From Gammaproteobacteria bacterium (GTDB taxonomy: Bacteria; Pseudomonadota; Gammaproteobacteria; SZUA-229): DNA of 64,000 bases. The stretch spans positions 59,028 through 123,027 of the forward strand of contig JABDRN010000028.1 in NCBI GenBank assembly GCA_013041745.1, written 5' to 3'. The translations under genes were made by a program, and so were the position numbers. Under the pieces are notes generated by a model, which ran no database searches, was not told the origin of the DNA, and saw only the letters and a program-made list of their open reading frames with translations. This document shows, piece by piece, positions 29,038-64,000 of this stretch. The number at the start of each line of letters is the position of its first letter. The stretch's first letter is position 1.

Positions 29038-29104
29038 AAAAGACAGCGCCAATAATAGTTACAACGATGACAAGGGAAAGTCGTTTTGATCGGCTAGTTG
29101 AACA

Positions 29105-30802: not shown

Positions 30803-30819
30803 GGTCATAGGTAAGAATT

Positions 30820-32118: not shown

Positions 32119-32122
32119 ATTA

Positions 32123-33838: not shown

Positions 33839-33858
33839 CGGGATTACAGGTAACGACT

Positions 33859-48429: not shown

Positions 48430-49839
48430 TTACACGCTGTAGTACATATCGAACTCACAAGGATGTACCGATGCGCGGTAACGCTGGACTTCTTCGCTCT
48501 TCAAGTCAATGAAACCGTCGATCATGTCATCATCGAAGACACCGCCTTCGGTCAGGAATGCGCGATCTTCGTCCAGTGCTTTTAAAGCTTCATCAAATGA
48601 GAAAGCAACCTGTGGGATTTTGGCTTCTTCTTCTGGTGGCAGGTCATACAGGTCTTTGTCTGCAGCCGCACCTGGATCGATCTTGTTCCTGATACCGTCA
48701 AGGCCGGCCATCAGCATCGCTGCGAAACACAGGTATGGGTTAGCTGTATTATCACCGAAACGCACCTCGATACGGCGTGCTTTAGGGCTGGATACGTGAG
48801 GGATACGGATAGAGGCAGAACGGTTACGAGCAGAATATGCCAGCATAACAGGCGCTTCAAAACCGGGTACCAGGCGTTTGTAACTGTTGGTCGAAGCATT
48901 AGCGAATGCATTCAGCGCTTTGGCATGTTTGATGATGCCGCCGATGTAATACAGTGCTGTCTGAGACAGGCCGCCGTAGAGGTCACCAGAGAATGTATTT
49001 TCTCCGTCTTTGAAGATCGACTGGTGAACGTGCATACCGTTACCGTTATCACCGACCATCGGTTTTGGCATGAAAGTCGCGGTCTTTCCGTATGCATGCG
49101 CCACGTTGTGTACGACATATTTGTAGATCTGAACTTCGTCAGCTTTACGCACCATGGTGTTGAACAGCGCGCCGATCTCACACTGGCCTGCTGTTCCCAC
49201 TTCATGGTGGTGTACTTCTGTTTTACATCCCATGTCTTCCATAACCAGGCACATAGAAGATCGCAGGTCCTGCAATGAGTCTATCGGAGGAACCGGGAAG
49301 TAACCGCCTTTGACACCAGGACGGTGGCCCATGTTGTTGCCGTCGTAATCTTTACCAGTGTTCCAGGCGGCTTCTTCGGATTCGATCTTATAGAACACAC
49401 CGCCCATCTCGTCGCCCCACTGGACACCGTCGAAAACAAAGAACTCGTTTTCAGGACCGAAGTAAGCCGCATCGCCGATGCCGGTAGACTTCAGGTAAGC
49501 TTCAGCACGTTTCGCGATAGAGCGTGGGTCGCGGTTGTAGCCGGTCATGTCAGTCGGTTCGATGATATCGCATGTGATATTCATGGTGACTTCTTCACAG
49601 AACGGGTCGATAACCTGGGAATCACAGTCTGGCATCAGGATCATGTCAGATGCGTTAATACCTTTCCAGCCCTGAATTGACGAGCCGTCGAACATCTTGC
49701 CTTCGGTCAGACTGTCTTCATCAACGGTGTGTGACGGTACAGAAACGTGCTGTTCTTTACCCTGGGTATCAGTAAAACGAAAATCGACGAATTTAACGTC
49801 TTTTTCCTTAATCATATTTATAACGTCAGTTGCAGACAT
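48430..49839 (-). CDS. glnA: Glutamine synthetase type I
   Basis: Full-length GSI with conserved motifs including the adenylylation-site region (NLYDLPPEE). Confidence 0.95.
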
Positions 49840-49966: not shown

Positions 49967-50059
49967 AGGACCTTTAATCAACCCTGTTTTTTCTGGTGGC
50001 GACCGTCGACAGATAGCAGCGAGTCGTCGATCAGCAACAGGGCTCATCAAAGGTCCTTT
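49967..50059. repeat. About 93-bp imperfect inverted-repeat element in the glnA upstream region
   Basis: AAAGGACCTTTAATCAACCCTG at 49967-49988 and CAGGGCTCATCAAAGGTCCTTT at 50038-50059. Arms match 19 of 22. Each end is itself an 11-bp palindrome AAAGGWCCTTT. Confidence 0.45.
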
Positions 50060-50169
50060 GTTAACAAGGGGTGATTTTGCACGAAAGCGTTCAATAATGG
50101 AAACCCCATATTAAGTGCCATCGTGCGATGTAACTAAAAAAAGTAACAGGCAGATGGCACAGACTTTCA

Positions 50170-50190
50170 TGCGCACCAATGTGGTGCGCA
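50170..50190. promoter_or_regulatory. NtrC-type dyad TGCGCACCAatgTGGTGCGCA (glnA upstream activating site)
   Basis: Perfect 9-3-9 palindrome matching the NtrC consensus. About 330 bp upstream of the glnA start and abutting the CDF stop codon. Confidence 0.55.
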
Positions 50191-51333
50191 TCAGTAAAAT
50201 TGTAGCTTGCACTCACCGACCGATCCGACTTGTTTCGTTGCCTCATAAAATTCTTTCTGCAAAGAAGGCACGTCTTCGATCTTGTTGAGAAATTTATATG
50301 GTAAGCCGGCTTCGACGCTGATATGCCCATCCAGGTAGTGCAGGGTTATGTCATCAATATTTTTCAAGGTCTCATGTTTTGACCATTCCTGGTTCAGCGC
50401 CAGCAGTAATTCACTGCGAAGCGGTAAGTTTTTACAGCTTGCCGCACTCTCATCGTCTTCCGGATCAATATGGACAGTGACATCGTTGACTTCATCAAAC
50501 TTCTCTATTAATGCGGTCTCGACGCTCTCAGAGATATGGTGACCTTCCGAAACACTCAGTTTGGGCGATACCTGTATATGTACATCAACCAATGCATTGT
50601 GTCCCATACGGCGGCTGCGTAATAGATGCAATTCACGGACATCATCGATATCCAGAATAGTGTTTTTTATCTGTTCGACCATCTCTGGTTCCAGTGCTGT
50701 ATCGACCAGCTCCTGTACACTCTGCCGGCTCAGGTCGAGCCCGATCTTGCCGATCATCAGGGCGACAATAATTGCAGCGATGGCATCGACCAGCGGATAA
50801 CCGATAAAGGTGGCGCCGATACCGAAGAGTACGACGATCGAGGAAACTGCATCACTGCGGTGATGCCAGGCATTTGCCTCGAGTAACGGCGATCGGATCT
50901 TATGCGCGACGGCACGTGTCGCATGATACAGGGCTTCATTGCTAAGGATAGAAATAGCAGCAATAATCAGGGTGAAAGATGCTGGTATGGCGATATCTTC
51001 CGGATTTTCCAGACGCAGTATGGCGTCATAAGCGATGCCACCGGCAACACCCATCAACAAGATGCCGAGCGCCACGGTGGCGAGCGTTTCATAACGGCCA
51101 TGACCATAAGGGTGGTCTTCGTCTGCGTCTTCACCGGCATGCTTGGCAGCGACCAGTACCATGGCATCGCTGGCAAGGTCAGAGAGCGAGTGGATGCCAT
51201 CAGCGAGCAGGGCCTGCGACTGCCCCATGATACCGCCAACTGTTTTGATCACGGCGAGGAACAGGTTTACGGCTACGCCCCAGAGGGTGATACGGTTGGT
51301 TTCCTTTTTGCGCTGCTCGATAGAAATTTCCAT
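50191..51333 (-). CDS. Cation diffusion facilitator (CDF) transporter with an extra C-terminal domain of about 80 aa
   Basis: Six TM with the metal-site motif HSLSDLASD...; the cytoplasmic CTD is followed by an additional Cys-containing tail. Confidence 0.75.
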   Translation of the reverse strand: MEISIEQRKKETNRITLWGVAVNLFLAVIKTVGGIMGQSQALLADGIHSLSDLASDAMVLVAAKHAGEDADEDHPYGHGRYETLATVALGILLMGVAGGIAYDAILRLENPEDIAIPASFTLIIAAISILSNEALYHATRAVAHKIRSPLLEANAWHHRSDAVSSIVVLFGIGATFIGYPLVDAIAAIIVALMIGKIGLDLSRQSVQELVDTALEPEMVEQIKNTILDIDDVRELHLLRSRRMGHNALVDVHIQVSPKLSVSEGHHISESVETALIEKFDEVNDVTVHIDPEDDESAASCKNLPLRSELLLALNQEWSKHETLKNIDDITLHYLDGHISVEAGLPYKFLNKIEDVPSLQKEFYEATKQVGSVGECKLQFY

Positions 51334-51372
51334 GGCCTTATTTTGATTGCCGGGGATTGATGGTGCAAGTAC

Positions 51373-51891
51373 TTATTGAGGTTTTATCTTTTTCAGACCG
51401 TTATTCAGAGCATCTTCAATATATCCGCCATATAGGTCTAATGTATTTATACCCAGAATACGTTGCGATACTTCGTTGCCATCGCCGTCGAAAAATAAAA
51501 TAGTCGGTGTCAGTACAACGTCTATATCTCTGGCAAAAACATCGGGAGTCGTATTATTACCGGAAAAATCGATTATCGTCTGATAACTGTCGAGATCGAT
51601 CTTACGTATCAGTACGATCCCGGAATAATAATCATTGCGCAACATAGGCTTGATGAACTCTTCTTCCAGCAGATCGCAATAACCGCAGTAACTGGCGGAG
51701 ACTTCCAGCATGATTATTTTGTTTTCTTCGCGAGCCACTTTTGCCAGGCTCGAAAAATCTGTTGCATACTGGATGACCACATGAGGCAATATATCTTCCT
51801 CATCTTCCAGTTCATAGGCATCATACGTTTCGTTGGCCGATGACATTGATGGATATATTTGCAACAGCAAGATGAAAATAAGGTGTTTCAT
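51373..51891 (-). CDS. Periplasmic thioredoxin-fold protein
   Basis: Signal peptide; CGYC active-site motif. Confidence 0.6.
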   Translation of the reverse strand: MKHLIFILLLQIYPSMSSANETYDAYELEDEEDILPHVVIQYATDFSSLAKVAREENKIIMLEVSASYCGYCDLLEEEFIKPMLRNDYYSGIVLIRKIDLDSYQTIIDFSGNNTTPDVFARDIDVVLTPTILFFDGDGNEVSQRILGINTLDLYGGYIEDALNNGLKKIKPQ

Positions 51892-51921
51892 GGTGAAGAT
51901 ATTGCTACCTGGAGATGTATA

Positions 51922-52488
51922 TTATGAGTCAAACTCATCGTTATTGTTGAAGTTTCTAAATGCAGATTCATCCTCGAATTCTACCATCTCGGGCTGTTGT
52001 GATTTTACCCATTGCATCAGTCGTAACTGACCATCGATGAGAGCTTGCCCGATAGATCGATGCAGGTTTTTATGCAGCATCATGACCAGCTGCAATCTAT
52101 TATTCGAAGTGGCGATATGAAGATGGGTTTCTGGCTTGCTGCGGCTGAATTTATCAATTATGTCCGTTGGTAAACAAGGGGTGTCGCAGGCAACGATTAG
52201 CACCCTGTCGTGCAGGGCATGAGGCAATGCAGCATAGATACCCGCCAGTGGTCCAAGATATTGCTCAGTCTCATCAGCGATAACTGTCTCAGAGTATCGT
52301 TGATATTGCTTGGTATTACGATTCGCGCTTATCACGATGTCATCGACCTGGGGTATAATTTTTTCGATGACATGTTCGATGAGAGGTTTACCTCTGTACT
52401 CGAGCAGCCCCTTATCTACACCACCGACACGTTTGCCTTCTCCTCCGGCAAGGATGATGCCGCTGACCTGCTCAGCGATCTTGTTCAT
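51922..52488 (-). CDS. mobA: Molybdenum cofactor guanylyltransferase MobA
   Basis: MNKIAEQVSGIILAGGEGKRVGGVDKGLL... matches the MobA N-terminus. Start placed at the internal Met. Confidence 0.8.
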   Translation of the reverse strand: MNKIAEQVSGIILAGGEGKRVGGVDKGLLEYRGKPLIEHVIEKIIPQVDDIVISANRNTKQYQRYSETVIADETEQYLGPLAGIYAALPHALHDRVLIVACDTPCLPTDIIDKFSRSKPETHLHIATSNNRLQLVMMLHKNLHRSIGQALIDGQLRLMQWVKSQQPEMVEFEDESAFRNFNNNDEFDS

Positions 52489-52863
52489 GAGAATAAACAG
52501 GTGATATTGCCTGATAACATAACGGTACTGCAAAGTTTCCACGTCATCTCGGTTTTGTCCACTGGTAATGGCGGGCTATGTTTCATAAGGCAGTATAAGG
52601 TTGCGTTAGATCAGGATAAATTCTAACAAGGTATCATATCTCAAGCCTTGATCGTTTTGTGATAATTATAAGGTGCCTTCCATGGCGTGTGAGGAGTCTC
52701 GTCCTTGTATGATTCAAACTCTGTAATGTGATTCAGTTGAGCACCAAAACTACTGGTAGCAGGCGCTTCACCTAAATGAGTTTACAGGGTGTTCAGACAT
52801 AGTCATGTGCAACATGCATGCCAGCGATAAAACCGGTATCTGCAGTCGATTACAAGGTGAAGT

Positions 52864-52880
52864 TGCACAGTTAGGGTGCA
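52864..52880. promoter_or_regulatory. NtrC-like dyad TGCACagttagGGTGCA upstream of the ANTAR regulator gene
   Basis: TGCAC-N6-GGTGCA spacing matches NtrC sites. Additional GTGCAA half-sites occur at 52806, 52877 and 52918. Confidence 0.4.
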
Positions 52881-52973
52881 AAATCGGTGTCGATATGAGT
52901 TATTCAGGTGCAATGCTGTTCCCTAAAATGGTTTTCTCTGGCTATAACAGGCATATACAGTACCTATATCATT

Positions 52974-52989
52974 TGGCATGACTATTGCT
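52974..52989 (+). promoter_or_regulatory. Sigma54 promoter TGGCATGactaTTGCT driving the ANTAR regulator
   Basis: Near-consensus -24 GG and -12 TTGC with correct spacing. It overlaps the ORF-track ATG at 52978, which argues for a downstream start. Confidence 0.6.
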
Positions 52990-53025
52990 ATTTGTTACAT
53001 GTATGAAAACCAAGAAGATTTGTAT

Positions 53026-53598
53026 ATGGACCTGATCCTTGTTGCCGACAACCTGGATAGCGCTCAGCCATTATTGAGAGTTGCATCAAAGTCTGGCTAT
53101 CGAATAGTGAAGTTGATCGAAGTGGATGCTGATGCCAGCAGGTATGTGGAATCATTGCGCCCTGACGCCCTGATAGTGCTCAGTGATGAAATAGACCGGC
53201 TAGTGTTACGGCAGATGAAAGCTATCACCGCAAAACAACCCTTACCGATGGTTGTTTTTACCCGTGATTCTAATCCCGATTCTATCGATGCCGCTGTAAA
53301 AGCCGGTGCTAGTACTTATGTAGTTGACTGTAATGATCCTGAGAGGCTGGGCTCTCTGCTGGGTGTGGCCAGGTCGAGGTTCGATGAGCAGCAACGCTTA
53401 CAGAAAGAGCTGCTGCAGACAAAGATCGCACTGTCCGACCGGAAGAATGTAGAAAGAGCAAAAGGTATCATCATGAAAACCAAGAGCGTAAGTGAAGACC
53501 AGGCTTATAACGCGATGCGAAAACTGGCGATGAACCATAATAAACGCATAGGTGAAATAGCTGAGCAGATAATCTCAGCGTCTGAAGTCCTGGTCTAA
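53026..53598 (+). CDS. NasT/AmiR-like response regulator with C-terminal ANTAR RNA-binding antitermination domain
   Basis: Receiver-like N-terminus (MDLILVADN...) and ANTAR (LSDRKNVERAKGIIMKTKSVSEDQAYNAMRKLAMNHNKRIGEIAEQII). Confidence 0.8.
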   Translation: MDLILVADNLDSAQPLLRVASKSGYRIVKLIEVDADASRYVESLRPDALIVLSDEIDRLVLRQMKAITAKQPLPMVVFTRDSNPDSIDAAVKAGASTYVVDCNDPERLGSLLGVARSRFDEQQRLQKELLQTKIALSDRKNVERAKGIIMKTKSVSEDQAYNAMRKLAMNHNKRIGEIAEQIISASEVLV

Positions 53599-53697
53599 TA
53601 GACGTTATTAAAGTTCAGTCATCAGCTGGATTGATCTATGTTCTCCTGACCCATCATGACAGCGTAAAATATATAACATAAGTCTTTCAGGTGAAAA

Positions 53698-54669
53698 ATG
53701 GGATGGCTAGATAAATCAATCAGTAAACAGCGTAGTTTTATAGAAGGTTTATTACTTGATCCTTTGAGCAAGCTTGCCGATATATGTGTTGACAGCTGGA
53801 GTGACAGGAAAAAGCTGGATCAGAGTCTGAAAGCCTATCTGCAGGCGAAAACAGATCACCGCTGTTCTTTATTGTATGCGATAGACATAAAGGGCCTGCA
53901 GTACAGCAGTAATATCTCAAAAGATATGGTCGATGAAGCCATCATCGGTCAGGACCTGTCGCACAGGCCTTATCTAAAAAGCATCGATAATGGCAGTGAA
54001 ACACAGTTGTTGCTTAGTGATGTCTACATCGATAAGCAGACCCGCAAGCCCTGTATAACAGTGCTACATGAGGTCAGGTCGAATCATGAGGTCATCGGCT
54101 ATATCGCTGCTGATTTCGGACTGAAAGATCTGCCGTTAAAAAACGTTAATGAGTTACAGTCATATGAATGGCGCCAGATAAAAGGCGATCCTTCCATACG
54201 TGGTACGATGTTTCAGCAGACGCGGGTCCGCAGTTCGATGGATCAGCATATCGATGAAGTGCTCGATGTGGTCGAGTCCCTGATGACAGAGCAGGGGGTG
54301 TTTCACGTAAAGCTGCATTTCTCCAGTTCACGAGCGACACTATGGTCATACAGTGATCCTTATCGATATCGTCTGCATGTATTGGACGAGATAATTAATC
54401 CTAAAGTTTGTCTCGTCTATGAAAAAGTGCCTTACCCTGAGCAGGCCCTGGTCACGGCCGGTATGGTGCACAACGTGTTAAAAGCTTTCAAGCTTTTGAG
54501 GGATGCTGATGAAACTATCTACCTGCGGGCCGCGTCATTGAATATAATGAACGGGCTGGTCGGACTCAACTTCTCCTGCGACGGCTCTCATTATATGCCA
54601 GCCAATGAATTTCTCGAAAAAGACCTGAGGTTCTGGTTTGGCGAAGAAACTATCTGTGTCAATGCCTAG
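53698..54669 (+). CDS. Cytoplasmic Cache/PAS-like sensor protein; putative ligand-sensing partner of the ANTAR regulator
   Basis: No TM. Cache-like motif RPYLKSI...LLLSDVYIDKQTRKPCITVLHEV...EVIGYIAADFGL. Sits where nasS would be but is unrelated to NrtA-type binding proteins. Confidence 0.5.
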   Translation: MGWLDKSISKQRSFIEGLLLDPLSKLADICVDSWSDRKKLDQSLKAYLQAKTDHRCSLLYAIDIKGLQYSSNISKDMVDEAIIGQDLSHRPYLKSIDNGSETQLLLSDVYIDKQTRKPCITVLHEVRSNHEVIGYIAADFGLKDLPLKNVNELQSYEWRQIKGDPSIRGTMFQQTRVRSSMDQHIDEVLDVVESLMTEQGVFHVKLHFSSSRATLWSYSDPYRYRLHVLDEIINPKVCLVYEKVPYPEQALVTAGMVHNVLKAFKLLRDADETIYLRAASLNIMNGLVGLNFSCDGSHYMPANEFLEKDLRFWFGEETICVNA

Positions 54670-54684
54670 ATATTAATGATAGAT

Positions 54685-54709
54685 AAAAAAAGGCAGCCTG
54701 TCGGCTGCC
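54685..54709 (-). terminator. Intrinsic terminator (minus-strand orientation) after the PhoX-like gene
   Basis: GGCAGCC-tgtc-GGCTGCC with the T-run on the minus strand (A7 on the plus strand). Confidence 0.6.
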
Positions 54710-54779
54710 CCACTAAGTTCATGACAGAGGTGTCGGACCTCACGGTGAATGTGTCACCATCATGATCAAGGCACGGGTC

Positions 54780-56117
54780 TTAGTCGTTGTCTTTCCAGTG
54801 GCCCTTGCCTTTACGTGTTATCGCCCACGTGGCATCGCCATCATCAGCTGCTGAGTGCTGTACGTTGACATACAGGGTTTTGTCATCAGTCGGGCTGAAG
54901 TAGATGCCGGTACCTTCTGCACCCGGGTCGGTCAGAGAAGCGAATAAGTCAACGTCTTTAGATGCTCCATACTCGTTAGTTTTTGTAGAAGCGAACCAGA
55001 TGTCAGATGGTTTGTTATCTTCGATCATGATCAGGTCACCGTTTGGTGCTTCTGCCAGGTTGTCGACGCTGTCGAAACCAGTCTGGTGGCCTTCCTGACC
55101 GGGCTTGCCTATTTCAACAGGAGCGTTAACGCCAGCTTTAACGAAGTTAGTGACTTGCATTGACTGAAGATCAACAGCGATCACACGGCCTTCGTAGTAC
55201 TCTTTGCCGTATTCGTCACGAGGGCCTTCAGTGATAGCAACGTACAGATTGCCGTCGATGATTTCCAGGTCTTCAGGACGCTGGTAGCTTGCGCCGCCAG
55301 CCAGAGTGCCGGCGCGACGAGCATCAGTAGCGTCGATAGGGCCCAGCCATTCGCCCTGTCCAGTATTATCGGCACGATGCTCATTGTTAAGAGGGGTTTT
55401 AATGCCCAGAACGTACAGATCACCAGAAGACAGGTCACCGTAATTGTGAGGAACGAACTTGTAAATGCCGCCACCACATGGAATGCCCAGGTCACAGCCT
55501 GAAGTACGGCCGCGGTGCTCATCTACTACATAAACGTTACCATCAATGTCGAAATCGATGCCTTCGTGCGCCAGGCGGCCAACAGCAGGACGATCATGAA
55601 TTACTGCAGCAGTAGTCAGGTCAGCATCCAGTTCGATTTCGAAAAAACGCCCGCCCGTTGTTTCTTCAGCGAATACAACTGTGCCCCATGGGGACCAGCG
55701 AATACCGTCCAGGGCATTATATGAAGGGTCCTGAGCCAGGATGGAAGTTGCACCGGTTTCCAGGTCAACAACAGTAACTGTGCCGCCTTCTGGCTGGTTG
55801 GCCGGGAAGCGCAGTTCATGAGTGCGATACATAAAACGACCAGCCATCGGGCCAGTTTCATTGACAACGTTCATGTCATGCCAGTCGTCGCGGCCACCGT
55901 CATAGATGTTCAGGTCTGCTTCATCAGAAACCACAGTCTGTTTGAAGCCTTTAGGCAGTTTCCATGGCGCAGTCGGATCCCAGTTAGCTGCGTTAGCAGA
56001 TTCTTCGAGTGGTTTGAAGCTGAAGCTGTTGTTTTTTTTATCATCATCTGCCTGTACTGTGCCAGAGATGGTTAACGCTGCAGTGATAGCAGAAGCCAGT
56101 AAGTGATTTTTGTTCAT
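54780..56117 (-). CDS. Secreted DUF839/PhoX-family beta-propeller (phosphatase-like) protein
   Basis: Signal peptide MNKNHLLASAITAALTISGTVQA after SD AAGGAAAAA; DUF839-like motifs (SPWGTVVFAEE, NGDLIMIEDN). Confidence 0.5.
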   Translation of the reverse strand: MNKNHLLASAITAALTISGTVQADDDKKNNSFSFKPLEESANAANWDPTAPWKLPKGFKQTVVSDEADLNIYDGGRDDWHDMNVVNETGPMAGRFMYRTHELRFPANQPEGGTVTVVDLETGATSILAQDPSYNALDGIRWSPWGTVVFAEETTGGRFFEIELDADLTTAAVIHDRPAVGRLAHEGIDFDIDGNVYVVDEHRGRTSGCDLGIPCGGGIYKFVPHNYGDLSSGDLYVLGIKTPLNNEHRADNTGQGEWLGPIDATDARRAGTLAGGASYQRPEDLEIIDGNLYVAITEGPRDEYGKEYYEGRVIAVDLQSMQVTNFVKAGVNAPVEIGKPGQEGHQTGFDSVDNLAEAPNGDLIMIEDNKPSDIWFASTKTNEYGASKDVDLFASLTDPGAEGTGIYFSPTDDKTLYVNVQHSAADDGDATWAITRKGKGHWKDND

Positions 56118-56440
56118 TAAATTTTTCCTTAAGCAAGGTTGAAAATATTTATAACCAGGAGTCAATGTGGTTATGTCGTTCTCAGTCATTCCTGAGAGCG
56201 GATATATTCATCGAGTTGTGTGAAAGATTTATTAAACAAAATTGACGGTTTTATGAATATATATGTCGTATGACAGATATGCAGTTATTGTTACAACATT
56301 ATTACTAAAAATTTTTGTAACCGATGCAGACGAACTGGTTTGGTGCGGATGGAATCTTTATGGGCTTCTATGGTGCAATAGTTGCCTGGAATGAGTAAAA
56401 GTTATTATTAAATCTTACGTATATTAACGACTTGAAAAAC

Positions 56441-56456
56441 TGGCACGTTCTATGCT
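56441..56456 (+). promoter_or_regulatory. Sigma54-like promoter TGGCACGttctaTGCT of the flavo-heme operon
   Basis: Consensus -24 TGGCACG; the -12 is TGCT (one mismatch) with correct spacing. About 20 nt upstream of ANTAR hairpin P1. Confidence 0.45.
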
Positions 56457-56474
56457 TATGCATTAATAAGTGAG

Positions 56475-56546
56475 CTGGTCAATGGCGGCCAGTCTGAATA
56501 AATACATTTTTTAGATAATTATCTAAGACACAAAGCAATGGTGCTT
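56475..56546 (+). ncRNA. ANTAR-target dual hexaloop hairpins (P1 56475-56492 CUGGUC[AAUGGC]GGCCAG; P2 56533-56546 AAGC[AAUGGU]GCUU) in the operon leader
   Basis: Both loops are hexaloops with A at position 1 and G at position 4, the ANTAR-target signature. P2 overlaps the 5' arm of the terminator. Confidence 0.55.
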
Positions 56547-56586
56547 GTATGCGGATTAGTTTCGTATGCAAGCGCCATTTTTTTTG
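56538..56586 (+). terminator. Leader intrinsic terminator (attenuator) upstream of the flavoprotein gene
   Basis: A 16-bp stem (AUGGUGCUUGUAUGCG / CGUAUGCAAGCGCCAU with 3 G-U pairs), 9-nt loop, then T8. Located 25 nt before the start codon. Confidence 0.7.
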
Positions 56587-56610
56587 TGCCGTTTAAAAGT
56601 CGATAGTTTT

Positions 56611-58629
56611 ATGAGCGCAATGCTAGAAAAGATCGTACCTGTAGCACAGGTCTCATCAGATAACGCAGTTTGTATCGCTGCCGAGACGGCCGCAATCGTC
56701 ATCGTTGGCAGTGGTCCTGTCGGTATGCAGTTTGCCAATGAACTCATGCTACGTAATACCGATGCACCCGTTATCGTTTATGGCAGCGAGCCTGTGCAGC
56801 CATACAACAGGGTAAGGCTCTCAGACTATCTTGCCGGTGAGGTATACCGTGATGCGCTTTCGATCGAGGAGCCTGTTTCAGGTAATGCAAATATCGAGTT
56901 TCGTTATAACTGTGCCGTCGAGTGGATCGATAAGAAAGAAAGGTTTATAACCGATGCCAGTGGCAGGGTGCAGCGATATTCAAAGCTGGTGCTGGTCACA
57001 GGGTCAACACCATTTATACCGATGTTTGGCAACCGCCATTACGAAGGTGTCTATACCTTTCGTACACTGGGCCAGGCGGATGAACTGCTCTCCAGAAAAA
57101 TCCGTACCAGGCATACTGTTGTCATAGGCGGAGGTCTGCTGGGCATTGAAACTGCGCGTGCCATGCAGAAGTATCATACAGATATAACCATCGTCGAACA
57201 TAACAGATGGTTGATGATGCAGCAGCTCGATGAGAAGGGTTCATCATATCTTGAGGACTACATCAAAAAGAACGGGATAAATATAGTACTCGATGACAGT
57301 GTCGTCAGTGTTACGGGAAATGGCCGTGTCGAGGGTGTAACGCTACGTAGCGGTAAAACAATAGAATGCGATACATTAATCGTAGCCGCCGGAGTTCGAC
57401 CGAATATTTCGCTGGCCAGGGATGCCGGACTGGTCTACCACAAAGGCATCCGTATCGATAATCATTTGCAGACCTCAGAGAAGGATATCTTTGCTATCGG
57501 TGAGTGTGCAGAACATGACGAAAATGTTTACGGGCTGGTAAAACCAGGTTTTGATCAGGCGGCTGTTCTTGCGGAGCGTTTGACAGGCGGTGATGCTCAG
57601 TATGTCGGGTCGATAAGTACGACAAAGTTGAAGGTCATGTCACAGGCAGTTTTCAGTGCTGGACGCAATGGTATAGATGAAGAGCCTGGTGCGTCCGTTA
57701 GTGAATATGTTTTCAGCGATAAGGATGCTGGTATATATCGAAAGATTCGCATCTTCGGGAATCGTATCATCGGTGTGATCGCCGTCGGTGAATGGCATGA
57801 GAGTGCTCTTATCAATGAAGCCATACAGGAAAGACGCAAGTTCTGGTTCTGGCACCTGGTCCGTTTCAAAGCCACTGGAAATATCTGGGGTGATGCAGAT
57901 GATATCGATGTATCGACATGGCCAGCGTCTGCGACCGTATGTAACTGTACCGGGGTGACACGAGGCAGATTAAGCAGCGTAGTTAACAGTGGATGTGAGG
58001 ATGTCGCCTGCCTTACCAGGATGACGCGCGCTGGAAGTGTCTGTGGCTCATGCAAACCGTTACTGGCGGAGATGTTAGGTGAGTCAGCTGATATCGAACC
58101 GGTACGGTCATGGCGGGGGCTGCTGGCTTTATCTGCACTGACTGTTGTTATCACAGTGATGTTCGCATTGTTCTGGCCGATACCGTTTGCTGATAGTGTG
58201 CAGTACGAAATACGCTGGGATGAATTATGGCGAGACTCACTGTTCAAGCAGATCAGTGGTTTCAGTATGCTGGGGCTGATCGTAATCGGACTTTTCATCT
58301 CGCTGCGAAAGCGCAGTTCTAAAGTCAGCTTCGGAGATTATGACCTGTGGCGTATATCTCACATCGTGCTCGGTATCGTCGCCCTGGCAGTGCTCATCGC
58401 GCATACCGGTTTTCGTTTAGGCAATGAACTGAATATGCTGCTGATGATTAATTTTTTATTGCTGGCTGCGGCCGGTGCAAGCGCCAGTACTGTCGTGGCA
58501 ACCGAGCATCGCATGGTGCCGGCAGTCGCAAAGAAGAAGCGCAAGATGTGGAACAAGGTGCACCTGTTTCTGTTCTGGTCTCTGCCTGTACTCCTGGGTT
58601 TTCATGTCTTGAAGACATATTACTACTGA
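56611..58629 (+). CDS. NirB-N-terminal-like NAD(P)H flavoprotein (FAD/NAD plus BFD [2Fe-2S]) fused to a C-terminal His-rich 5-TM domain
   Basis: GSGPVG and GGGLLG Rossmann motifs; GECAEHDENVYGLVKPGFDQAAV (compare NirB GECASWNNRVFGLVAPGYKMAQV); BFD-like CNCTGVTRGRL...CGSCKP; then five hydrophobic helices with His residues. No siroheme or 4Fe-4S domain. Start at the internal Met after the terminator. Confidence 0.75.
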   Translation: MSAMLEKIVPVAQVSSDNAVCIAAETAAIVIVGSGPVGMQFANELMLRNTDAPVIVYGSEPVQPYNRVRLSDYLAGEVYRDALSIEEPVSGNANIEFRYNCAVEWIDKKERFITDASGRVQRYSKLVLVTGSTPFIPMFGNRHYEGVYTFRTLGQADELLSRKIRTRHTVVIGGGLLGIETARAMQKYHTDITIVEHNRWLMMQQLDEKGSSYLEDYIKKNGINIVLDDSVVSVTGNGRVEGVTLRSGKTIECDTLIVAAGVRPNISLARDAGLVYHKGIRIDNHLQTSEKDIFAIGECAEHDENVYGLVKPGFDQAAVLAERLTGGDAQYVGSISTTKLKVMSQAVFSAGRNGIDEEPGASVSEYVFSDKDAGIYRKIRIFGNRIIGVIAVGEWHESALINEAIQERRKFWFWHLVRFKATGNIWGDADDIDVSTWPASATVCNCTGVTRGRLSSVVNSGCEDVACLTRMTRAGSVCGSCKPLLAEMLGESADIEPVRSWRGLLALSALTVVITVMFALFWPIPFADSVQYEIRWDELWRDSLFKQISGFSMLGLIVIGLFISLRKRSSKVSFGDYDLWRISHIVLGIVALAVLIAHTGFRLGNELNMLLMINFLLLAAAGASASTVVATEHRMVPAVAKKKRKMWNKVHLFLFWSLPVLLGFHVLKTYYY

Positions 58630-58650
58630 GCATTCAAAACGGACAGGGTT

Positions 58651-60072
58651 ATGAATGTGAGTGAGACGGCACTGAAGTGGATCTTATGGATAGTACTAAC
58701 AACGATAATTGTTATATGGCTAGGTTATTCGATGCTTTCTGAGTCAGCAGATAAAACGATATTTATGCCCGGGCCATTAAGTCCGGGGCATCATCAGCTG
58801 GCAGATGCCTGTGGTGCTTGCCATGCTGATGCTTTTGGCGGCGGAGAAGTGCTGCAGCAGTCCTGTGTTGACTGCCATGGCGAAGACAGGGTGAAGCCTT
58901 TTGATTCTCACCCAGCAAAAAAATTTAAGGATCCACGTAATGTTGAGCTCTTAGAAAATATCGATGCCCTGATGTGTACCAGCTGCCATACAGAACATCG
59001 TCCAGAGATCACGGCAAAAGATGGCGTGACACAGCCGATCGATTTCTGTGTTCACTGTCACCAGGATGTTGCTGAGGAGCGACCGTCACATGAAGGTATG
59101 GCCTTTGATACCTGTAAAGATTCTGGCTGTCACAATTTTCATAATAATCGTGCTCTGTATACCGACTTTCTGATTAAGCATCTCGATGAGCCGCCGACAT
59201 TGAAACAAGTCGTGCTGCCCGCAAAAGAGTATCTCGATGTTATCGATGAAGTCGTCGAGTACCCCCGAGAAAAATATCCACTGACTCAACTCGAAGAAAA
59301 AGATATCGATGCCGTGGAACGGCTGACTGTCAGTCCAGAGATAAAAAAAGACTGGCTCGAAACATCACATGCTAAATCGGGTGTCAATTGTACAGCATGC
59401 CATATAACGGAGGATGGTAGCGGCAGTGAGAAATGGACTGACCATCCTGAGCACCAGGCCTGCTCGAGTTGCCATAGTGTGGAAGTATCGCGTTTTACAG
59501 AGGGTAAGCATGGCATGCGTCTTAAACAGGGACTGTCACCGATGACGCCAGAGAATGCCATGCTGCCGATGAAAGAAGCTGCGCAACATGAAGATCTTAC
59601 CTGCAGCAGCTGCCATGGCGCTCATCGATTCGATGTGGTGTCGGCCGCTGTCGAATCATGCCTTGGCTGTCACGATGATGACCATAGCCTCGCTTACGAG
59701 CAGTCGCCACATTATCAGCTGTGGCAGAAAGAGATAAGCGGTGAAGCTGAAGCTGGCACCGGCGTTTCCTGCGCCAGTTGCCACATGCCACGTATCAGTT
59801 ATGACGTCAGTGAATGGTCAAGTCGCATAATCGTCGACCACAACCAGAGTGCAAACCTGTCGCCCAACAGCAAGATGATCCGTTCCAGTTGCCTGCACTG
59901 TCATGGCCTGGAGTTTACCTTGGAAGCATTGATCGACGTGAATATGATCAACAATAACTTCACTGGAAAGCCCGTTATTAATAGCGAAACGATGGACCTT
60001 GCCGACAGCGAAAACCAGAGACGCCTGAAGGCGGCGGCTGAAGATGAAGATGCTGGCATGTTCGGTTTCTAG
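58651..60072 (+). CDS. Membrane-anchored multiheme cytochrome c (10-11 heme sites); NapC/NrfH-like tetraheme N-module plus an additional multiheme domain
   Basis: N-terminal TM, then CGACH, CVDCH, CTSCH, CVHCH within about 130 aa, then CTACH, CSSCH, CSSCH, CLGCH, CASCH, CLHCH and one CX4CH (CKDSGCH). Confidence 0.8.
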   Translation: MNVSETALKWILWIVLTTIIVIWLGYSMLSESADKTIFMPGPLSPGHHQLADACGACHADAFGGGEVLQQSCVDCHGEDRVKPFDSHPAKKFKDPRNVELLENIDALMCTSCHTEHRPEITAKDGVTQPIDFCVHCHQDVAEERPSHEGMAFDTCKDSGCHNFHNNRALYTDFLIKHLDEPPTLKQVVLPAKEYLDVIDEVVEYPREKYPLTQLEEKDIDAVERLTVSPEIKKDWLETSHAKSGVNCTACHITEDGSGSEKWTDHPEHQACSSCHSVEVSRFTEGKHGMRLKQGLSPMTPENAMLPMKEAAQHEDLTCSSCHGAHRFDVVSAAVESCLGCHDDDHSLAYEQSPHYQLWQKEISGEAEAGTGVSCASCHMPRISYDVSEWSSRIIVDHNQSANLSPNSKMIRSSCLHCHGLEFTLEALIDVNMINNNFTGKPVINSETMDLADSENQRRLKAAAEDEDAGMFGF

Positions 60073-60134
60073 AGAGTAGCAGAAAACTAACCGTTGATTT
60101 TTCAACATAAACAAACTTGACCTTAGAGGTGATT

Positions 60135-60743
60135 ATGAAAAACATGAAACACAATTTGAAACGAAAGCTGATGATTGGCACTGCAGTATCTGCTATCGCA
60201 GCTGCCACGGCTGTCAGTGCCGAGGTCTCTGATGCAAAAGTATCTGTAAAAGCGATGGCAGATGCATTACACCTGGTGATGGATTCCGATCGTTCGGTAT
60301 ATACCAAGAAGATCGTGAACAGGCTGGTGAAAAAAGAGAAAGTGATCAAAGCGTCCGAACACTTCGAAGATGAAAAAGCACTGGTGTTGCCAGCACAGAT
60401 GTTCAGGTTCGGTTCGGAGATGGCGGCAAAGCGAGCAGAGAAACTGGATGATGTTAATTTCAGTTATACCCTGCAGTCGCTATGGCCTATCAATAAACAG
60501 AATGCGCCGAAGACCAATGCAGAAAAAGCAGGTTTGAAATATGTCGCGGAGAACAAGGGTAAAAATTATTACACGACCGAGAAGCTTGGCGGGGTAAATT
60601 ATTTTACCGCAGTTTACGCAGATACGGGTGTCGCACCGGTATGTGTTTCATGTCATAACAAGCACCCGGACACACCGAAAAAAGATTTTAAGATCGGTGA
60701 CGTAATGGGTGGCGTAGTTATCCGTATACCGGTTGAAGGCTAA
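60135..60743 (+). CDS. Periplasmic monoheme c-type protein, DUF3365/Tll0287-like (PAS-like heme c)
   Basis: Signal peptide; single C-terminal CVSCHNKH. SD AGAGGTGATT directly before the ATG. Confidence 0.5.
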   Translation: MKNMKHNLKRKLMIGTAVSAIAAATAVSAEVSDAKVSVKAMADALHLVMDSDRSVYTKKIVNRLVKKEKVIKASEHFEDEKALVLPAQMFRFGSEMAAKRAEKLDDVNFSYTLQSLWPINKQNAPKTNAEKAGLKYVAENKGKNYYTTEKLGGVNYFTAVYADTGVAPVCVSCHNKHPDTPKKDFKIGDVMGGVVIRIPVEG

Positions 60744-60754
60744 TAGATAGCACT

Positions 60755-61156
60755 ATGTTGACCGGACTAGGTAACATTATATCTCTTGCATTCTCTGTTG
60801 TAGTCTTTACCACGGTCATGGTATCAGAGGCGCTGGCGGATAATGCGGATTATATTCAGTCAGGTGATGAAGCACTGCAACAGGGCCGAGGCCTGTGGCT
60901 GGAGAACTGCGAGGGATGTCATGGTTATGGTATCGCAGACGCACCGATACCTATGCAAGCTGGCGACTGGAAGCACCGCGTGATAAAGGAAAGAGAGGTT
61001 CTATATCGTCATGCTATAGAAGGTTTTATCGGTGAGGACTATAGCATGATGCCGGCACGCGGCGGTAATGAAGAATTAAACGACGACCAGGTTAAAGCGG
61101 CGGTGGATTATATGCTGTTCCTGGCAAATTTTTATATCAAACAACAAGACAATTAA
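60755..61156 (+). CDS. Class I cytochrome c (c5-like)
   Basis: Signal peptide, CEGCHGYG, and a distal Met region (DYSMMPARGG). Confidence 0.75.
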   Translation: MLTGLGNIISLAFSVVVFTTVMVSEALADNADYIQSGDEALQQGRGLWLENCEGCHGYGIADAPIPMQAGDWKHRVIKEREVLYRHAIEGFIGEDYSMMPARGGNEELNDDQVKAAVDYMLFLANFYIKQQDN

Positions 61157-61166
61157 CGAGGTGATT

Positions 61167-61592
61167 ATGATAACTCCACAACAGAAAGAACTGGTACAAA
61201 AAACATGGGTGATGGTCGTGCCTATCGCTGATACGGCCGCCGAGCTTTTTTATGGCCGATTATTCGAGCTGGAGCCCGAATACAAGAAGATGTTTAAAAA
61301 CGATATGACAGAGCAGGGTAAAAAGCTGATGAAGACGATCAATATCGCTGTAGAAGCGCTTGATGATGTCGAACCACTGGTCCCGGTGCTAAAAAAGATG
61401 GGTGCTGACCATGCAGGTTATGGCGTAAAAGAGCGTGACTACAACGTCGTCGGTGCAGCCCTGTTATGGACGCTGGAAAAAGGTCTGGGTGACGCCTTTA
61501 CCGATGAGGTCAAAAATGCCTGGGGTGCAGTCTATGAATTACTGGCAAGCGTGATGAAGTCTGGTGCAGCAGAAGCAGAACAGGCAGCATAA
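61167..61592 (+). CDS. Single-domain bacterial globin (Vitreoscilla-Hb / flavohemoglobin N-domain-like)
   Basis: Aligns to VHb: B10 Tyr (FYGRLF), E7 Gln, proximal His (GADHAGYGV), and ...NVVGAALLWTLEKGLGDAFTDEVKNAWGAVYELLASVM. Same GAGGTGATTATG start context as the 60135 gene. Confidence 0.8.
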   Translation: MITPQQKELVQKTWVMVVPIADTAAELFYGRLFELEPEYKKMFKNDMTEQGKKLMKTINIAVEALDDVEPLVPVLKKMGADHAGYGVKERDYNVVGAALLWTLEKGLGDAFTDEVKNAWGAVYELLASVMKSGAAEAEQAA

Positions 61593-61645
61593 GATTTAAG
61601 GTTTACTCCACAGGAACACAGGGACGCAGGGAAGCACTTATTAAC

Positions 61646-61680
61646 AGGGCCAGTGGACATCAGTTCACTGGCCCATTTCT
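61646..61680 (+). terminator. Putative terminator ending the flavo-heme-globin operon
   Basis: GGGCCAGTGGAC-atca-GTTCACTGGCCC followed by ATTTCTGTAT (weak T-run). Confidence 0.45.
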
Positions 61681-61686
61681 GTATAT

Positions 61687-61998
61687 CTAATAATGAACGG
61701 CCAGCCAGATGGTTTCTGTATCCGGGGCGGTCCATGACACCTTGTGTCTTTCATGTGCAGGTATGTTTAGATGATCACCCTGTTTGAGGCTAAACTTCGA
61801 TCCATCCGGGAAGGTTAATTCGGCGGCACCCTGCAACACGATTATCCACTCGTTCTTGTCCTGATCATACCAGCCGCTATCCGGAGAAGTATGCCCTTTT
61901 GAGATGATCCTCTCGATCTTTATGCTTTCACTATCGATGAGCGGATTGAATATTTCCTGGTCCATATTTTCAGGGATGTCATCAAAGATATTATCCAT
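61687..61998 (-). CDS. Cupin-domain protein
   Basis: Two cupin motifs (GHTSPDSGWYDQDKNEWIIVLQG; GDHLNIPAHERHKV). Confidence 0.6.
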   Translation of the reverse strand: MDNIFDDIPENMDQEIFNPLIDSESIKIERIISKGHTSPDSGWYDQDKNEWIIVLQGAAELTFPDGSKFSLKQGDHLNIPAHERHKVSWTAPDTETIWLAVHY

Positions 61999-62210
61999 GA
62001 TCAGTCCTCATGATTAATGTGGAATATCGGCAAGCTGAATTTGAATATATTAGCCAGTTCATGCAGTTTGTCACTCAGCTAGTCGGTCGTTTTTACCTTG
62101 TAGGCAAGAGGTTTGCTCAAGGCTGCTAGCGCTCTTATTCTTGCTGAAAATTAGATCAGTGATTGTCTTAACCATGGCACGCACACCCTAAGCCTTTGAT
62201 GGAACCTGGC

Positions 62211-62465
62211 CTATTTACGGAATTCAGTGATCTTTTCAAGTTCATAGATCGCGTCTGATATCGTCTCAAGCTTGCTCTCGAGTATGGCCTGGGCGTCATA
62301 GAGCCCCCGGTTGTAGAAATACGGGCCTATCTCTTCAGAGAAGAAGTCGAGCAGGAACTGGGCATCGAACTGGCCGATCTCCTGCTCAAGTTCCTCTGTA
62401 AAATAAAGCTGGATCTTCCTGCTGATGATTTCTTTTTCTTCTTTGCTGAATTCTATATCTGACAT
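62211..62465 (-). CDS. Small conserved hypothetical protein (DUF2164-like)
   Basis: 84-aa acidic helical ORF. Confidence 0.4.
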   Translation of the reverse strand: MSDIEFSKEEKEIISRKIQLYFTEELEQEIGQFDAQFLLDFFSEEIGPYFYNRGLYDAQAILESKLETISDAIYELEKITEFRK

Positions 62466-62650
62466 ATTATTTTCCCTGTCTATAATCGACCGGTGCGGCA
62501 GTTGAACGCATGGCAGGCTATTTAACGATAAAAAACTGAGACCAACTACCTTCGCATGAGACGGTTTCTATGTTATTTGTTTCTTACGATTATGGCATAG
62601 TTGCTGGTAAATATTTTTACCCTGAATATCGGTGGCTTGCCACCCTGGGT

Positions 62651-62980
62651 TTAATGCCCGGTAGTATTCGAAAATAAATGTATTACCAGCACACCTGAAA
62701 CGATCAACCCCATACCGATAATCGCAGGCAGGTCCAGCGATTGCTTGTAGTAGAAAAAACCAACGGCCGATATCAACACGATACCGAGCCCGGACCAGAC
62801 TGCATAGGTAATGCCTAGAGGTATCGTCCTTATTACCAGGGTCATAAAGTAGAATGCGACACCATAACCAACGACCACGATCATGCTCGGGATCAAGCGC
62901 GTAAATTCATCAGATGCTTTCAGCGCACTGGTTGCGATAACTTCTGCAACGATGGCAATTGCCAGGAATAAGTACGCCAT
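62651..62980 (-). CDS. SMR-family small multidrug/quaternary-cation efflux protein (EmrE/SugE-like)
   Basis: Four TM with the conserved Glu in TM1 (IVAEVIATSALK); about 109 aa. Confidence 0.8.
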   Translation of the reverse strand: MAYLFLAIAIVAEVIATSALKASDEFTRLIPSMIVVVGYGVAFYFMTLVIRTIPLGITYAVWSGLGIVLISAVGFFYYKQSLDLPAIIGMGLIVSGVLVIHLFSNTTGH

Positions 62981-62987
62981 AGTTACT

Positions 62988-63653
62988 CTATTTGTAATAC
63001 CTGGTAAAAGTAGCTATATCTTCTCGGGAAGTTCGATAACTGTTAACCAGCGCGTCATCGTCACCATAACCCAGAGCCATACCGCATAGCAGTATGGTTT
63101 CCTTCGGGTAATCCAGTTCGATTTTGATGATCTCGGGGTAATCTGCGAGCGATGCCTGCGGACAGGTCGCCAGCCCCTGATCAACCGCGGCCAGCATTAC
63201 TGACTGCAAAAACATACCATAATCTATATATGATCCGGTCTGCATGACAGCATCGATAAAAAACAGCAGCAGGACAGGGGCATCGAAGGCGCGATAATTA
63301 GCGGCCCACTGATCGACCTGGCGTTGCTTGTCTTCGCGCATGATGCCCAGCGTCTTATACATGAGCAGGCCGCAATCTTTTCGACGAGACGCATAAGGCT
63401 CTATCCACTCGTTCGGGTAATACTGGTAGTCAGCTTTGCCCTTATCCCCGGCGCGAAAAGCCTGTTCGATCCTGGACTGGAGCTTGAGCTTTGTTTTGCC
63501 GGTGACCACGGCTACCTGCCAGGGCTGCGTGTTCACACCCGATGGCGCATGGCGTGCCGCGTCTAGTATAGTATCGATTATTTCAGGTTCGACGGTTTTG
63601 TCTAGAAAGGCGCGGGTAGATTTACGTTGTGCTAATGCCGTGATGACATCCAT
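62988..63653 (-). CDS. Nitroreductase-family flavoprotein
   Basis: MDVITALAQRKSTRAFLDK... and the nitroreductase fold. Likely co-transcribed with the SMR gene (7-nt gap). Confidence 0.7.
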   Translation of the reverse strand: MDVITALAQRKSTRAFLDKTVEPEIIDTILDAARHAPSGVNTQPWQVAVVTGKTKLKLQSRIEQAFRAGDKGKADYQYYPNEWIEPYASRRKDCGLLMYKTLGIMREDKQRQVDQWAANYRAFDAPVLLLFFIDAVMQTGSYIDYGMFLQSVMLAAVDQGLATCPQASLADYPEIIKIELDYPKETILLCGMALGYGDDDALVNSYRTSREDIATFTRYYK

Positions 63654-63769
63654 CTGAATGCTCCTCAACCTCTTCAATGTTGCATGATAGCTTACTGTAT
63701 ATAACGCCAGTATCGCTCAGATTTTTTTAAGGATGATACGACGCTACGAGTTGTAGCATATGTTATGTC

Positions 63770-63976
63770 TCATCCATTGCCTTCGTCGTCTGATACCATC
63801 TTGGCGAAGCCGAGTAAAATTCCGATACCGACAGAAAAAAAGCCGACGGCGAACAATATATAAGCCAGCGATGAACGTGTATCAAAATAAAAAATAAAGC
63901 ACGCTATTATCATCGATAATAAGCCTGCCATGATGGTTATATAACTTTTATTGAACATCGGATTTCCAAAAAACAC
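63770..63976 (-). CDS. Small hypothetical membrane protein (2 TM)
   Basis: ORF only; hydrophobic. Confidence 0.3.
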   Translation of the reverse strand: MFFGNPMFNKSYITIMAGLLSMIIACFIFYFDTRSSLAYILFAVGFFSVGIGILLGFAKMVSDDEGNG

Positions 63977-64000
63977 ATAAATCAGGCGTTGAAGAATAAC

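Follow-up and report, generated by a model that had tools for sequence, protein, structure and literature searches.

A membrane-anchored eleven-haem cytochrome c encoded beside a NirB-like flavoprotein in a conserved proteobacterial operon

What task falls to a cytochrome c with eleven haems that is encoded in a conserved operon and has no characterised counterpart along its whole length? The question is raised by gene B, a 473 aa open reading frame at positions 58651–60072 (+ strand) of a 64,000 nt stretch of DNA, here called the window, from a Gammaproteobacteria bacterium (GenBank assembly GCA_013041745.1, contig JABDRN010000028.1, positions 59,028 to 123,027 of the forward strand). Gene B is the second of a five-gene operon with the order A-B-C-(D)-E, where D is optional. 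Our preferred answer, which we put forward tentatively, is that electrons would pass from reduced pyridine nucleotides (NAD(P)H) to protein A, from A to protein B, and from B to periplasmic haem proteins, B being the anchored electron-accepting subunit. As far as its sequence tells, B is probably not a quinol dehydrogenase and is unlikely to be an NrfA-type enzyme itself.

The translation of gene B holds ten CxxCH motifs (residues 54, 72, 109, 133, 247, 271, 318, 337, 374 and 414) and a single CX4CH (CKDSGCH, residues 155–161), the same count as in a preliminary description of this DNA. All 22 cysteines of the protein lie inside these motifs, and no CxxCK was found in its sequence. In the reading frame of gene B, all ten CxxCH motifs present across the window fall within the gene, while the other five frames contain seven in about 107,000 codons. 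At the latter rate a random stretch of 473 codons would be expected to hold about 0.03 of them; the cluster is thus far beyond chance. Residues ∼5–29 form a hydrophobic N-terminal helix (helix 5–29 in the AlphaFold2 model, with a predicted local distance difference test score (pLDDT) of 90–98) that carries the conserved Trp10 and Trp13. Gene B therefore encodes a membrane-anchored eleven-haem cytochrome c, in keeping with the anchored multihaem protein first proposed. The helix is followed by a head with five haems (residues 47–164; four CxxCH plus the CX4CH), a linker of ∼70 aa and a C-terminal domain with six haems within residues 240–420. The helix and the clustered haems behind it had been recognised before, but the head had been taken to have four haems, and of the ‘six or seven’ haems expected to follow, the motif count gives six.

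Among 137 homologues, with identities down to 28%, all eleven haem motifs were at least 96% conserved. Exactly eleven histidines outside the motifs were equally conserved (residues 47, 87, 116, 147, 164, 240, 287, 325, 345, 354 and 397), and motifs and extra histidines divide alike: five and five in the head, six and six in the C-terminal domain. The protein ends in an acidic tail (residues ∼450–473, window 59998–60072) that closes with MFGF. The pattern D-D-D-x-x-M-F-G-F was seen in most gammaproteobacterial B homologues (20 of 28 in one alignment), and most of the others had no tail. To our knowledge, no known motif resembles this tail, which might serve as a peptide for docking to a partner.

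At full length, protein B belongs to no characterised family. Pfam gave domain-level matches only, namely Cytochrom_c3_2 (PF14537; 57.3 bits, cut-off 25; strongest over residues 47–138) and a 60-column piece of Cytochrom_C552 (PF02335, profile positions 224–283 of 438). The NCBIfam scores were 19–37 bits against cut-offs of 192–692; they included the NrfA models NF008339 (32.7 bits versus 595) and TIGR03152 (27.8 versus 692), and the DmsE/MtrA model TIGR03508 (36.8 versus 192.2). Sequence searches of the PDB returned only local matches, with E-values of about 1e-5, to ONR, NrfA, OcwA and IhOCC (for ONR, E ∼2e-5 over residues 341–446 of B). An AlphaFold2 model built from a 140-sequence alignment reached a pLDDT of 85.3 and a predicted template-modelling score of 0.85; an earlier model from 28 close homologues (pLDDT 45) was not used. 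The top Foldseek match of the better model was the nitrite-reducing HAO of Brocadia (6t5e; E 2.7e-4), but with a template-modelling (TM) score of only 0.29–0.31 and a root-mean-square deviation of 15.5. These results bear out the earlier view that B fits none of the NrfA, HAO, MtrA/DmsE and TorC patterns, and no full-length match to a characterised family emerged from the profile, PDB or Foldseek searches.

Individual comparisons agree with this. The HAO and octahaem proteins (ONR, Otr, MccA, IhOCC) are built on an eight-haem core with a five-coordinate catalytic haem, whereas B has eleven haems, and DmsE/MtrA are soluble periplasmic decahaem proteins, whereas B is anchored in the membrane. 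Eleven c-type haems are shared with UetJ of Tenderia, with UndA of Shewanella and with OmhA of Carboxydothermus, but none of these has the anchor or the operon of B. The Carboxydothermus protein gave an E-value of 0.056 against B in the PDB profile search. UetJ was considered as a counterpart and rejected, as it is a secreted, extracellular protein encoded in a porin-cytochrome cluster. The B family is itself discrete: clustering at 50% leaves about 500 representatives, of which 158 have E < 1e-30. B-like domains also occur in apparent fusion with other proteins (MFS transporter, HTH domain, SecA and BFD fragment; P0179, P0126, P0259 and P0232), but these seem to be frameshifted or chimeric gene predictions and were left unused. 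A full-text literature search of incomplete coverage found no account of the cytochrome B family or of the five-gene operon.

The C-terminal domain points to a more specific ancestry. When the profile of the B family was compared with Escherichia coli NrfA by hhalign, residues 268–419 of B aligned with residues 157–319 of NrfA (probability 87.7%, E 3.4e-6). Haems 2, 3, 4 and 5 of NrfA have their counterparts in the haems at Cys271, 318, 374 and 414 of B, and the haem of B at Cys337 is an insertion. Haem 1 of NrfA, the catalytic one, lies outside the alignment; the catalytic Tyr216 aligns with the invariant His325 of B, and His264 with Ser352. Residues 316–353 also matched NrfB, an electron carrier, at its final two haems (hhalign probability 92.5%), and a module of the form W..H..GV.C..CH(MP)...H...C..CH is present twice in the protein. 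The aligned core of haems 2–5, the repeated module and the weak PDB matches, without exception, tie B to the group of NrfA, ONR, HAO and OcwA. It differs from NrfA in having no CxxCK, Tyr216 or His264, in the extra haem at Cys337 and in the fused anchor and five-haem head. Protein B would thus appear to be a mosaic whose core derives from NrfA but lacks the known catalytic residues of that enzyme, with His325, at the position of Tyr216, seemingly well placed to close the former active site. Because the catalytic residues are missing from this NrfA-like core, a relay role is favoured over that of a catalyst. The protein had been introduced as possibly the ‘catalytic or relay component of the operon’; of this, the place in the operon stands, and the choice now leans to relay.

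The head poses the question of where the electrons would come from. A membrane helix at the N-terminus, followed by dense haem c motifs facing the periplasm, is what B has in common with NapC, NirT, NrfH and CymA, and its head had initially been called a NapC/NirT/NrfH-like tetrahaem module. That assignment was not supported. Cytochrom_NNT (PF03264) gave no match in the head (residues 1–197) even at E ≤ 10, and its only match, of 14.7 bits against a cut-off of 24.1, was in the C-terminal half. Comparison of the 140-sequence B-family profile with E. coli NapC by hhalign gave a probability of 11%. The first haem motif lies ∼25 residues beyond the helix in B, versus ∼13 in NapC, and the head of B has five haems, one of them on a CX4CH, a kind of motif known from tetrahaem cytochromes c3. 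With the PF14537 match, this suggests a head that is generically cytochrome c3-like. NapC-type proteins receive their electrons from quinol, whereas the likely donor of B is a dedicated flavoprotein, protein A, with two putative b haems; protein A is more likely than quinol to be the electron donor.

Of about 185,000 species genomes, 413 contained a relative of B, and about 80 loci from these species were examined. Gene A adjoined gene B in some 80 loci; gene C was present in 78 of 81, gene E in 71 and gene D in 48. The order A-B-C-(D)-E was kept across about 80 loci, mostly from Gamma- and Betaproteobacteria, in contexts that were otherwise unrelated (for example, that of Thiosocius, L003). 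This synteny of B with A, C, (D) and E substantiates the operon membership claimed for B at the outset. In the window, no terminator-like site was found on the + strand between genes A and E, and a GC-rich 12-bp hairpin at 61647–61674 (+), after gene E and before a convergent cupin gene, is the probable end of the operon. Most hosts are sulfur oxidisers or methylotrophs among the Proteobacteria, and many can denitrify; they include Thiosocius, Sedimenticola, Halochromatium, Thiogranum, Granulosicoccus, Thiobacillus denitrificans, Sulfuritalea and Methylophilaceae. The module was also seen in one metagenome-assembled genome of Nitrospirota (L026) and in bins labelled Halobacteria and Streptomycetaceae (L009 and L055); the Nitrospirota occurrence and the implausible labels of L009 and L055 suggest horizontal transfer or mis-binned contigs. 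A gene for an ANTAR protein adjoined the module in 30 of the ∼80 loci, and genes for an NtrB-like nitrate permease, NarK, NirD or a true NirB paralogue flanked it in many.

Gene A (56611–58629, +) encodes an NAD(P)H/flavin adenine dinucleotide (FAD) module, a BFD-like [2Fe-2S] domain and a five-helix membrane domain. Its N-terminus is of the NirB/NorW/rubredoxin reductase type (Pfam Pyr_redox_2, 184 bits, with Rubredoxin_C and Fer2_BFD). The NirB model TIGR02374 was matched along positions 1–468 of 794, with 351 bits where 578 is the cut-off, so that the first ∼470 residues match NirB while the sirohaem/4Fe-4S half is replaced by the membrane domain; true NirB(D) is often encoded near the operon. 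In 77 sequences the cysteines assigned to the [2Fe-2S] cluster (Cys459, 461, 493 and 496) were invariant, as were two His-X13-His pairs in the membrane domain (His599/613 and His666/680). Related DUF4405 domains are, by experiment, haem-b cytochromes with four central histidines (PMC11334425), and we infer that the two His-X13-His pairs of A are the signature of two transmembrane b haems. An N-in topology, with the N-terminus in the cytoplasm, agrees with the positively charged loops. A search with the membrane domain alone returned only fragments of A-like proteins. The open reading frame opens at ATG 56566, where public gene calls start, but alignment with relatives places the start at ATG 56611; since the former codon lies within the leader terminator described below, 56611 is probably the start.

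A cytoplasmic pyridine-nucleotide flavoprotein joined to a four-His, two-helix membrane domain recalls the NADPH oxidases, ferric reductases, MsrQ-Fre and DUF4405 proteins, which share the arrangement of NAD(P)H inside and an acceptor outside. The order is reversed in A, however, with the dehydrogenase N-terminal; this dehydrogenase is of the NirB/rubredoxin reductase type with a [2Fe-2S] cluster, whereas those systems use the FNR type, and the putative acceptor, an eleven-haem cytochrome c, also differs from theirs. Proteins of the A type (P0398–P0479; JGI) are named ‘nitrite reductase (NADH) large subunit’ in databases. Those of the B type appear as ‘cytochrome c3 family protein’, ‘CXXCH cytochrome’ or ‘NrfA’ (P0045 and P0002 as ‘NrfA’ or ‘formate-dependent nitrite reductase cytochrome c552 subunit’). 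The nitrite reductase and ‘NrfA’ names are probably misannotations, since the defining catalytic parts are absent from both proteins.

Gene C (60135–60743, +) encodes a secreted, stand-alone Cache_haem protein (DUF3365/Tll0287-like; PF11845, 70.8 bits against a cut-off of 24.1) with a single haem c. In 78 orthologues its CxxCH (residues 176–180) was invariant and there was no further cysteine, hence no axial Cys. It is the best conserved protein of the module, with identities of 52–87% where those of B are 44–77%; a PDB search with it gave no match. In the Cache_haem family, the Cys-less member that has been tested binds nitric oxide (NO) tightly, and a Cys-ligated stand-alone member acts as a redox protein. 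Protein C matches the family and has the single CxxCH, with a ligand set like that of the NO-binding, signalling-coupled members; it is nevertheless a stand-alone protein, without the axial Cys of Tll0287 and of the Pseudomonas putida protein. Gene D (60755–61156, +) encodes a secreted class I monohaem cytochrome c (Pfam Cytochrome_CBB3 and Cytochrom_C) with a CxxCH and a conserved Met99. Gene E (61167–61592, +) encodes a single-domain globin, cytoplasmic and of the Hmp/Vgb type, in which Tyr31 occupies B10, Gln52 E7 and His84 F8; it matched Pfam Globin with 61.8 bits and the NCBIfam flavohaemoprotein model at positions 1–136 of 399.

The leader of the operon bears on when these proteins would be made. 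A sigma-54 −24/−12 promoter (TGGCACGTTCTATGCT; 56441–56456, +) fits the pattern TGGCAY-N5-DTGCW, which occurs five times in the window against 0.65 expected; in the leader it is kept at the same place in L004, L005, L050, L006 and L007. It is followed by a hairpin at 56474–56493 (+) with a 7-bp stem and the hexaloop AAUGGC, which has the A1/G4 of ANTAR targets. Compensatory changes were seen in six of its seven pairs in nine orthologous leaders, although these sequences had been preselected for hairpin formation. A second hairpin at 56533–56546 (+; AAGC-AAUGGU-GCUU) again has an A1/G4 hexaloop, and its loop and 3′ arm are the 5′ arm of an intrinsic terminator. The latter (56537–56590, +) lies between promoter and operon and has a 19-bp stem (56537–56579) and a run of eight T; its predicted fold has −49.7 kcal/mol (z = −6.5), and stem and T-run are kept in relatives. 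The terminator is predicted to compete with the second hairpin, which would make the leader an antitermination switch of ANTAR design; as set out by Ramesh et al. in 2012, an ANTAR target reportedly consists of two hairpins whose hexaloops begin with A and have G as the fourth base, with a terminator overlapping the second. Of 69 orthologous leaders, 42 (61%) had an A..G.. hexaloop hairpin, against 12% of control windows, and 18 (26%) had two, against 1.1%. Rfam matched no RNA family in positions 50000–64000 of the window.

A candidate regulator is encoded nearby. The gene at 52978–53598 (+) specifies a NasT-like protein with a receiver and an ANTAR domain (Pfam ANTAR, 65 bits; Response_reg weak). 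That at 53698–54669 (+) specifies a cytoplasmic Cache/PAS-like protein of 323 aa with a weak match to dCache_1 (25.5 bits against a cut-off of 45), and it is tentatively taken to be the sensor partner. This gene pair is kept only in the closest relatives (L004, L005 and L050), where the regulators stand directly upstream of gene A; in the window, a gene for a PhoX-like secreted protein (54780–56189, −) sits between the pair and the operon. The ANTAR regulator is here paired with the 323 aa protein and not with an NrtA-like NasS, and this 323 aa protein could represent another type of sensor, for nitrate, nitrite or NO, that acts with a NasT-type regulator. A nitrogen-control locus on the − strand, 7–11 kb upstream of the operon, comprises glnA (48430–49839), an ntrB-like gene (46502–47593) and an ntrC-like gene (45090–46502). 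The sigma-54 promoter and the ANTAR hairpins that overlap the terminator suggest that the operon is controlled as nitrate-assimilation genes are, by general nitrogen control together with an antiterminator specific for nitrate or nitrite.

Four further sigma-54-like motifs were seen in the window, at 52974–52989 (+), 52808–52823 (−), 24408–24423 (+) and 12640–12655 (+). One lies where the ANTAR gene is annotated to begin, and another is directed towards a MobA-like gene (51922–52542, −). Because of the motif at 52974–52989, the true start of the ANTAR gene may be an internal Met at about 53026. Elsewhere, positions 26221–35067 (+) encode a sigma-54 activator, an AAA protein, a secretin, a TPR protein, a T2SSE/MshE-type ATPase and T2SSF, followed by open reading frames without Pfam matches up to 39925; this cluster resembles a locus for an MSHA-like pilus or for type II secretion and is unrelated to gene B.

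Taken together, these parts suggest a path for electrons across the membrane. On the cytoplasmic side, the NirB/Nas-type portion of A, with its flavin and [2Fe-2S] centre, would oxidise NAD(P)H, and the membrane would be crossed by way of two b haems on the His-X13-His helices. From there, electrons would enter the five-haem head of B, which its membrane helix would keep beside A, and run along the eleven haems to the Cys-less protein C, with its site of NO-binding type, and, where present, to D. In the cytoplasm, A could plausibly also re-reduce globin E, a protein of NO-dioxygenase type. The likely job of the system would be the disposal of NO, nitrite or hydroxylamine arising during nitrate assimilation. 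What was read directly is the gene content, the motifs and their conservation, the synteny, the leader elements and the homology of residues 268–419 with the NrfA core. We infer from these the binding of haem b by A, its contact with B, the direction of electron flow, the acceptor and the substrate. A direct precedent exists in Bradyrhizobium, where the NasT-dependent narK-bjgb-flp-nasC genes provide a globin and a Nas-type flavoprotein that detoxify NO during nitrate assimilation (PMC4724949). Common to that NasS-NasT system and to the present operon are a single-domain globin and a Nas-type FAD/NAD(P)H flavoprotein under an ANTAR antiterminator. The Bradyrhizobium system, however, has no membrane domain, multihaem cytochrome or Cache_haem protein, and the operon described here has no nitrate reductase gene.

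Several observations weigh against B being a simple relay in such a path, and most of them speak for its being the enzyme. In that case its C-terminal six-haem domain would reduce periplasmic nitrite, NO or hydroxylamine, possibly to ammonium, fed by the head and by A; in effect, the reductase module of NirB would be coupled across the membrane to an NrfA-like catalytic domain. The weak PDB matches of B all fall within the group of NrfA, ONR, OcwA and IhOCC, whose members reduce nitrite or NO in vitro (PMC9250108), so that B could itself be an enzyme. The alignment with the NrfA core and the Brocadia HAO as top Foldseek match point the same way, and A derives from the reductase half of NirB. 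Eleven haems are many for a mere link to a soluble partner and would suit a multi-electron reaction, and regulation of the Nas type fits an assimilatory nitrite reductase as well as detoxification. Nor do eleven extra histidines equate to eleven bis-His haems: NrfA matches its haem count likewise, with one His being catalytic, so the equality in B does not separate relay from enzyme and would also allow for ten distal ligands and a single catalytic His. Two further points weaken the proposed path at its ends, as the DUF4405 match of A (17.9 bits) is under the cut-off of 26.7, and the stand-alone Cache_haem proteins assayed so far are all of the Cys-ligated redox type, unlike C. Against catalysis by B stand the absence of CxxCK, the replacement of Tyr216 and His264, an alignment that stops short of the catalytic haem, the low TM score and the family-model scores far under their cut-offs. 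Moreover, B is less conserved than C and E, and in several loci the module is adjoined by a true NirBD. On balance, we consider a catalytic B somewhat unlikely.

The other alternatives fare less well. That B is a quinol dehydrogenase of the NapC/NirT/NrfH/CymA type, acting through a membrane-proximal tetrahaem head, seems highly improbable: its helix and the closely spaced haem motifs after it are only superficially NapC-like, profile and profile-profile comparisons gave nothing, and both the spacing and the five-haem, c3-type head differ. The strictly co-occurring A, a putative transmembrane dihaem-b reductase, would also make quinol oxidation by B unnecessary. Electrons might instead flow inwards, from periplasmic cytochromes (for example, those of sulfur oxidation) through B and A to the globin or NAD(P)+, or the module might be a respiratory shunt, a general NAD(P)H:cytochrome c oxidoreductase that feeds denitrification enzymes or oxidases through D. 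The lifestyles of the hosts would suit this, and D, as a class I cytochrome c, is of a type that supplies periplasmic reductases and cbb3 oxidases. Flow from periplasmic cytochromes inwards to NAD(P)+ is uphill, however, and opposes the membrane potential. In addition, D is missing in ∼40% of the loci while C and E are nearly universal, the sigma-54 and ANTAR control points to nitrate assimilation and not to respiration, and no Fnr/Dnr-type context was seen, though no systematic search for one was made. We regard either form as quite improbable.

The preferred path from NAD(P)H through A and B can also be extended. A, B and C might together be an unrecognised reductase for NO or nitrite that spans the membrane and is driven by NAD(P)H, with its periplasmic catalytic site in C or in the NrfA-derived domain of B and with the globin sharing the reductase module. 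Among sulfur-oxidising and methylotrophic Proteobacteria, it would be a standard accessory to the regulon for nitrate assimilation. We think this unlikely, and give the same low credence to the suggestion that such a reductase follows the logic of NADPH oxidases with unrelated parts.

Every part of the system is of a known kind, and the novelty lies in their combination: a fusion of a Nas/NirB-type reductase with a putative dihaem-b domain, an anchored undecahaem cytochrome whose core derives from NrfA, a Cys-less Cache_haem protein and a globin, under sigma-54 and ANTAR control. These results would also correct a recurrent misannotation, that of A as ‘nitrite reductase large subunit’ and of B as ‘NrfA’ or ‘cytochrome c3 family protein’. 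If the proposed path is true, reducing power from NAD(P)H would be exported directly to haem proteins of the periplasm, without passing through the quinone pool, in many sulfur-oxidising, methylotrophic and denitrifying Proteobacteria. It would provide a physiological context for two protein families of which little is understood, the Cys-less stand-alone Cache_haem proteins and the DUF4405-like cytochromes. The electron-export route would be tied to nitrate assimilation, and would add a component to the handling of NO, nitrite and hydroxylamine in the nitrogen cycle.

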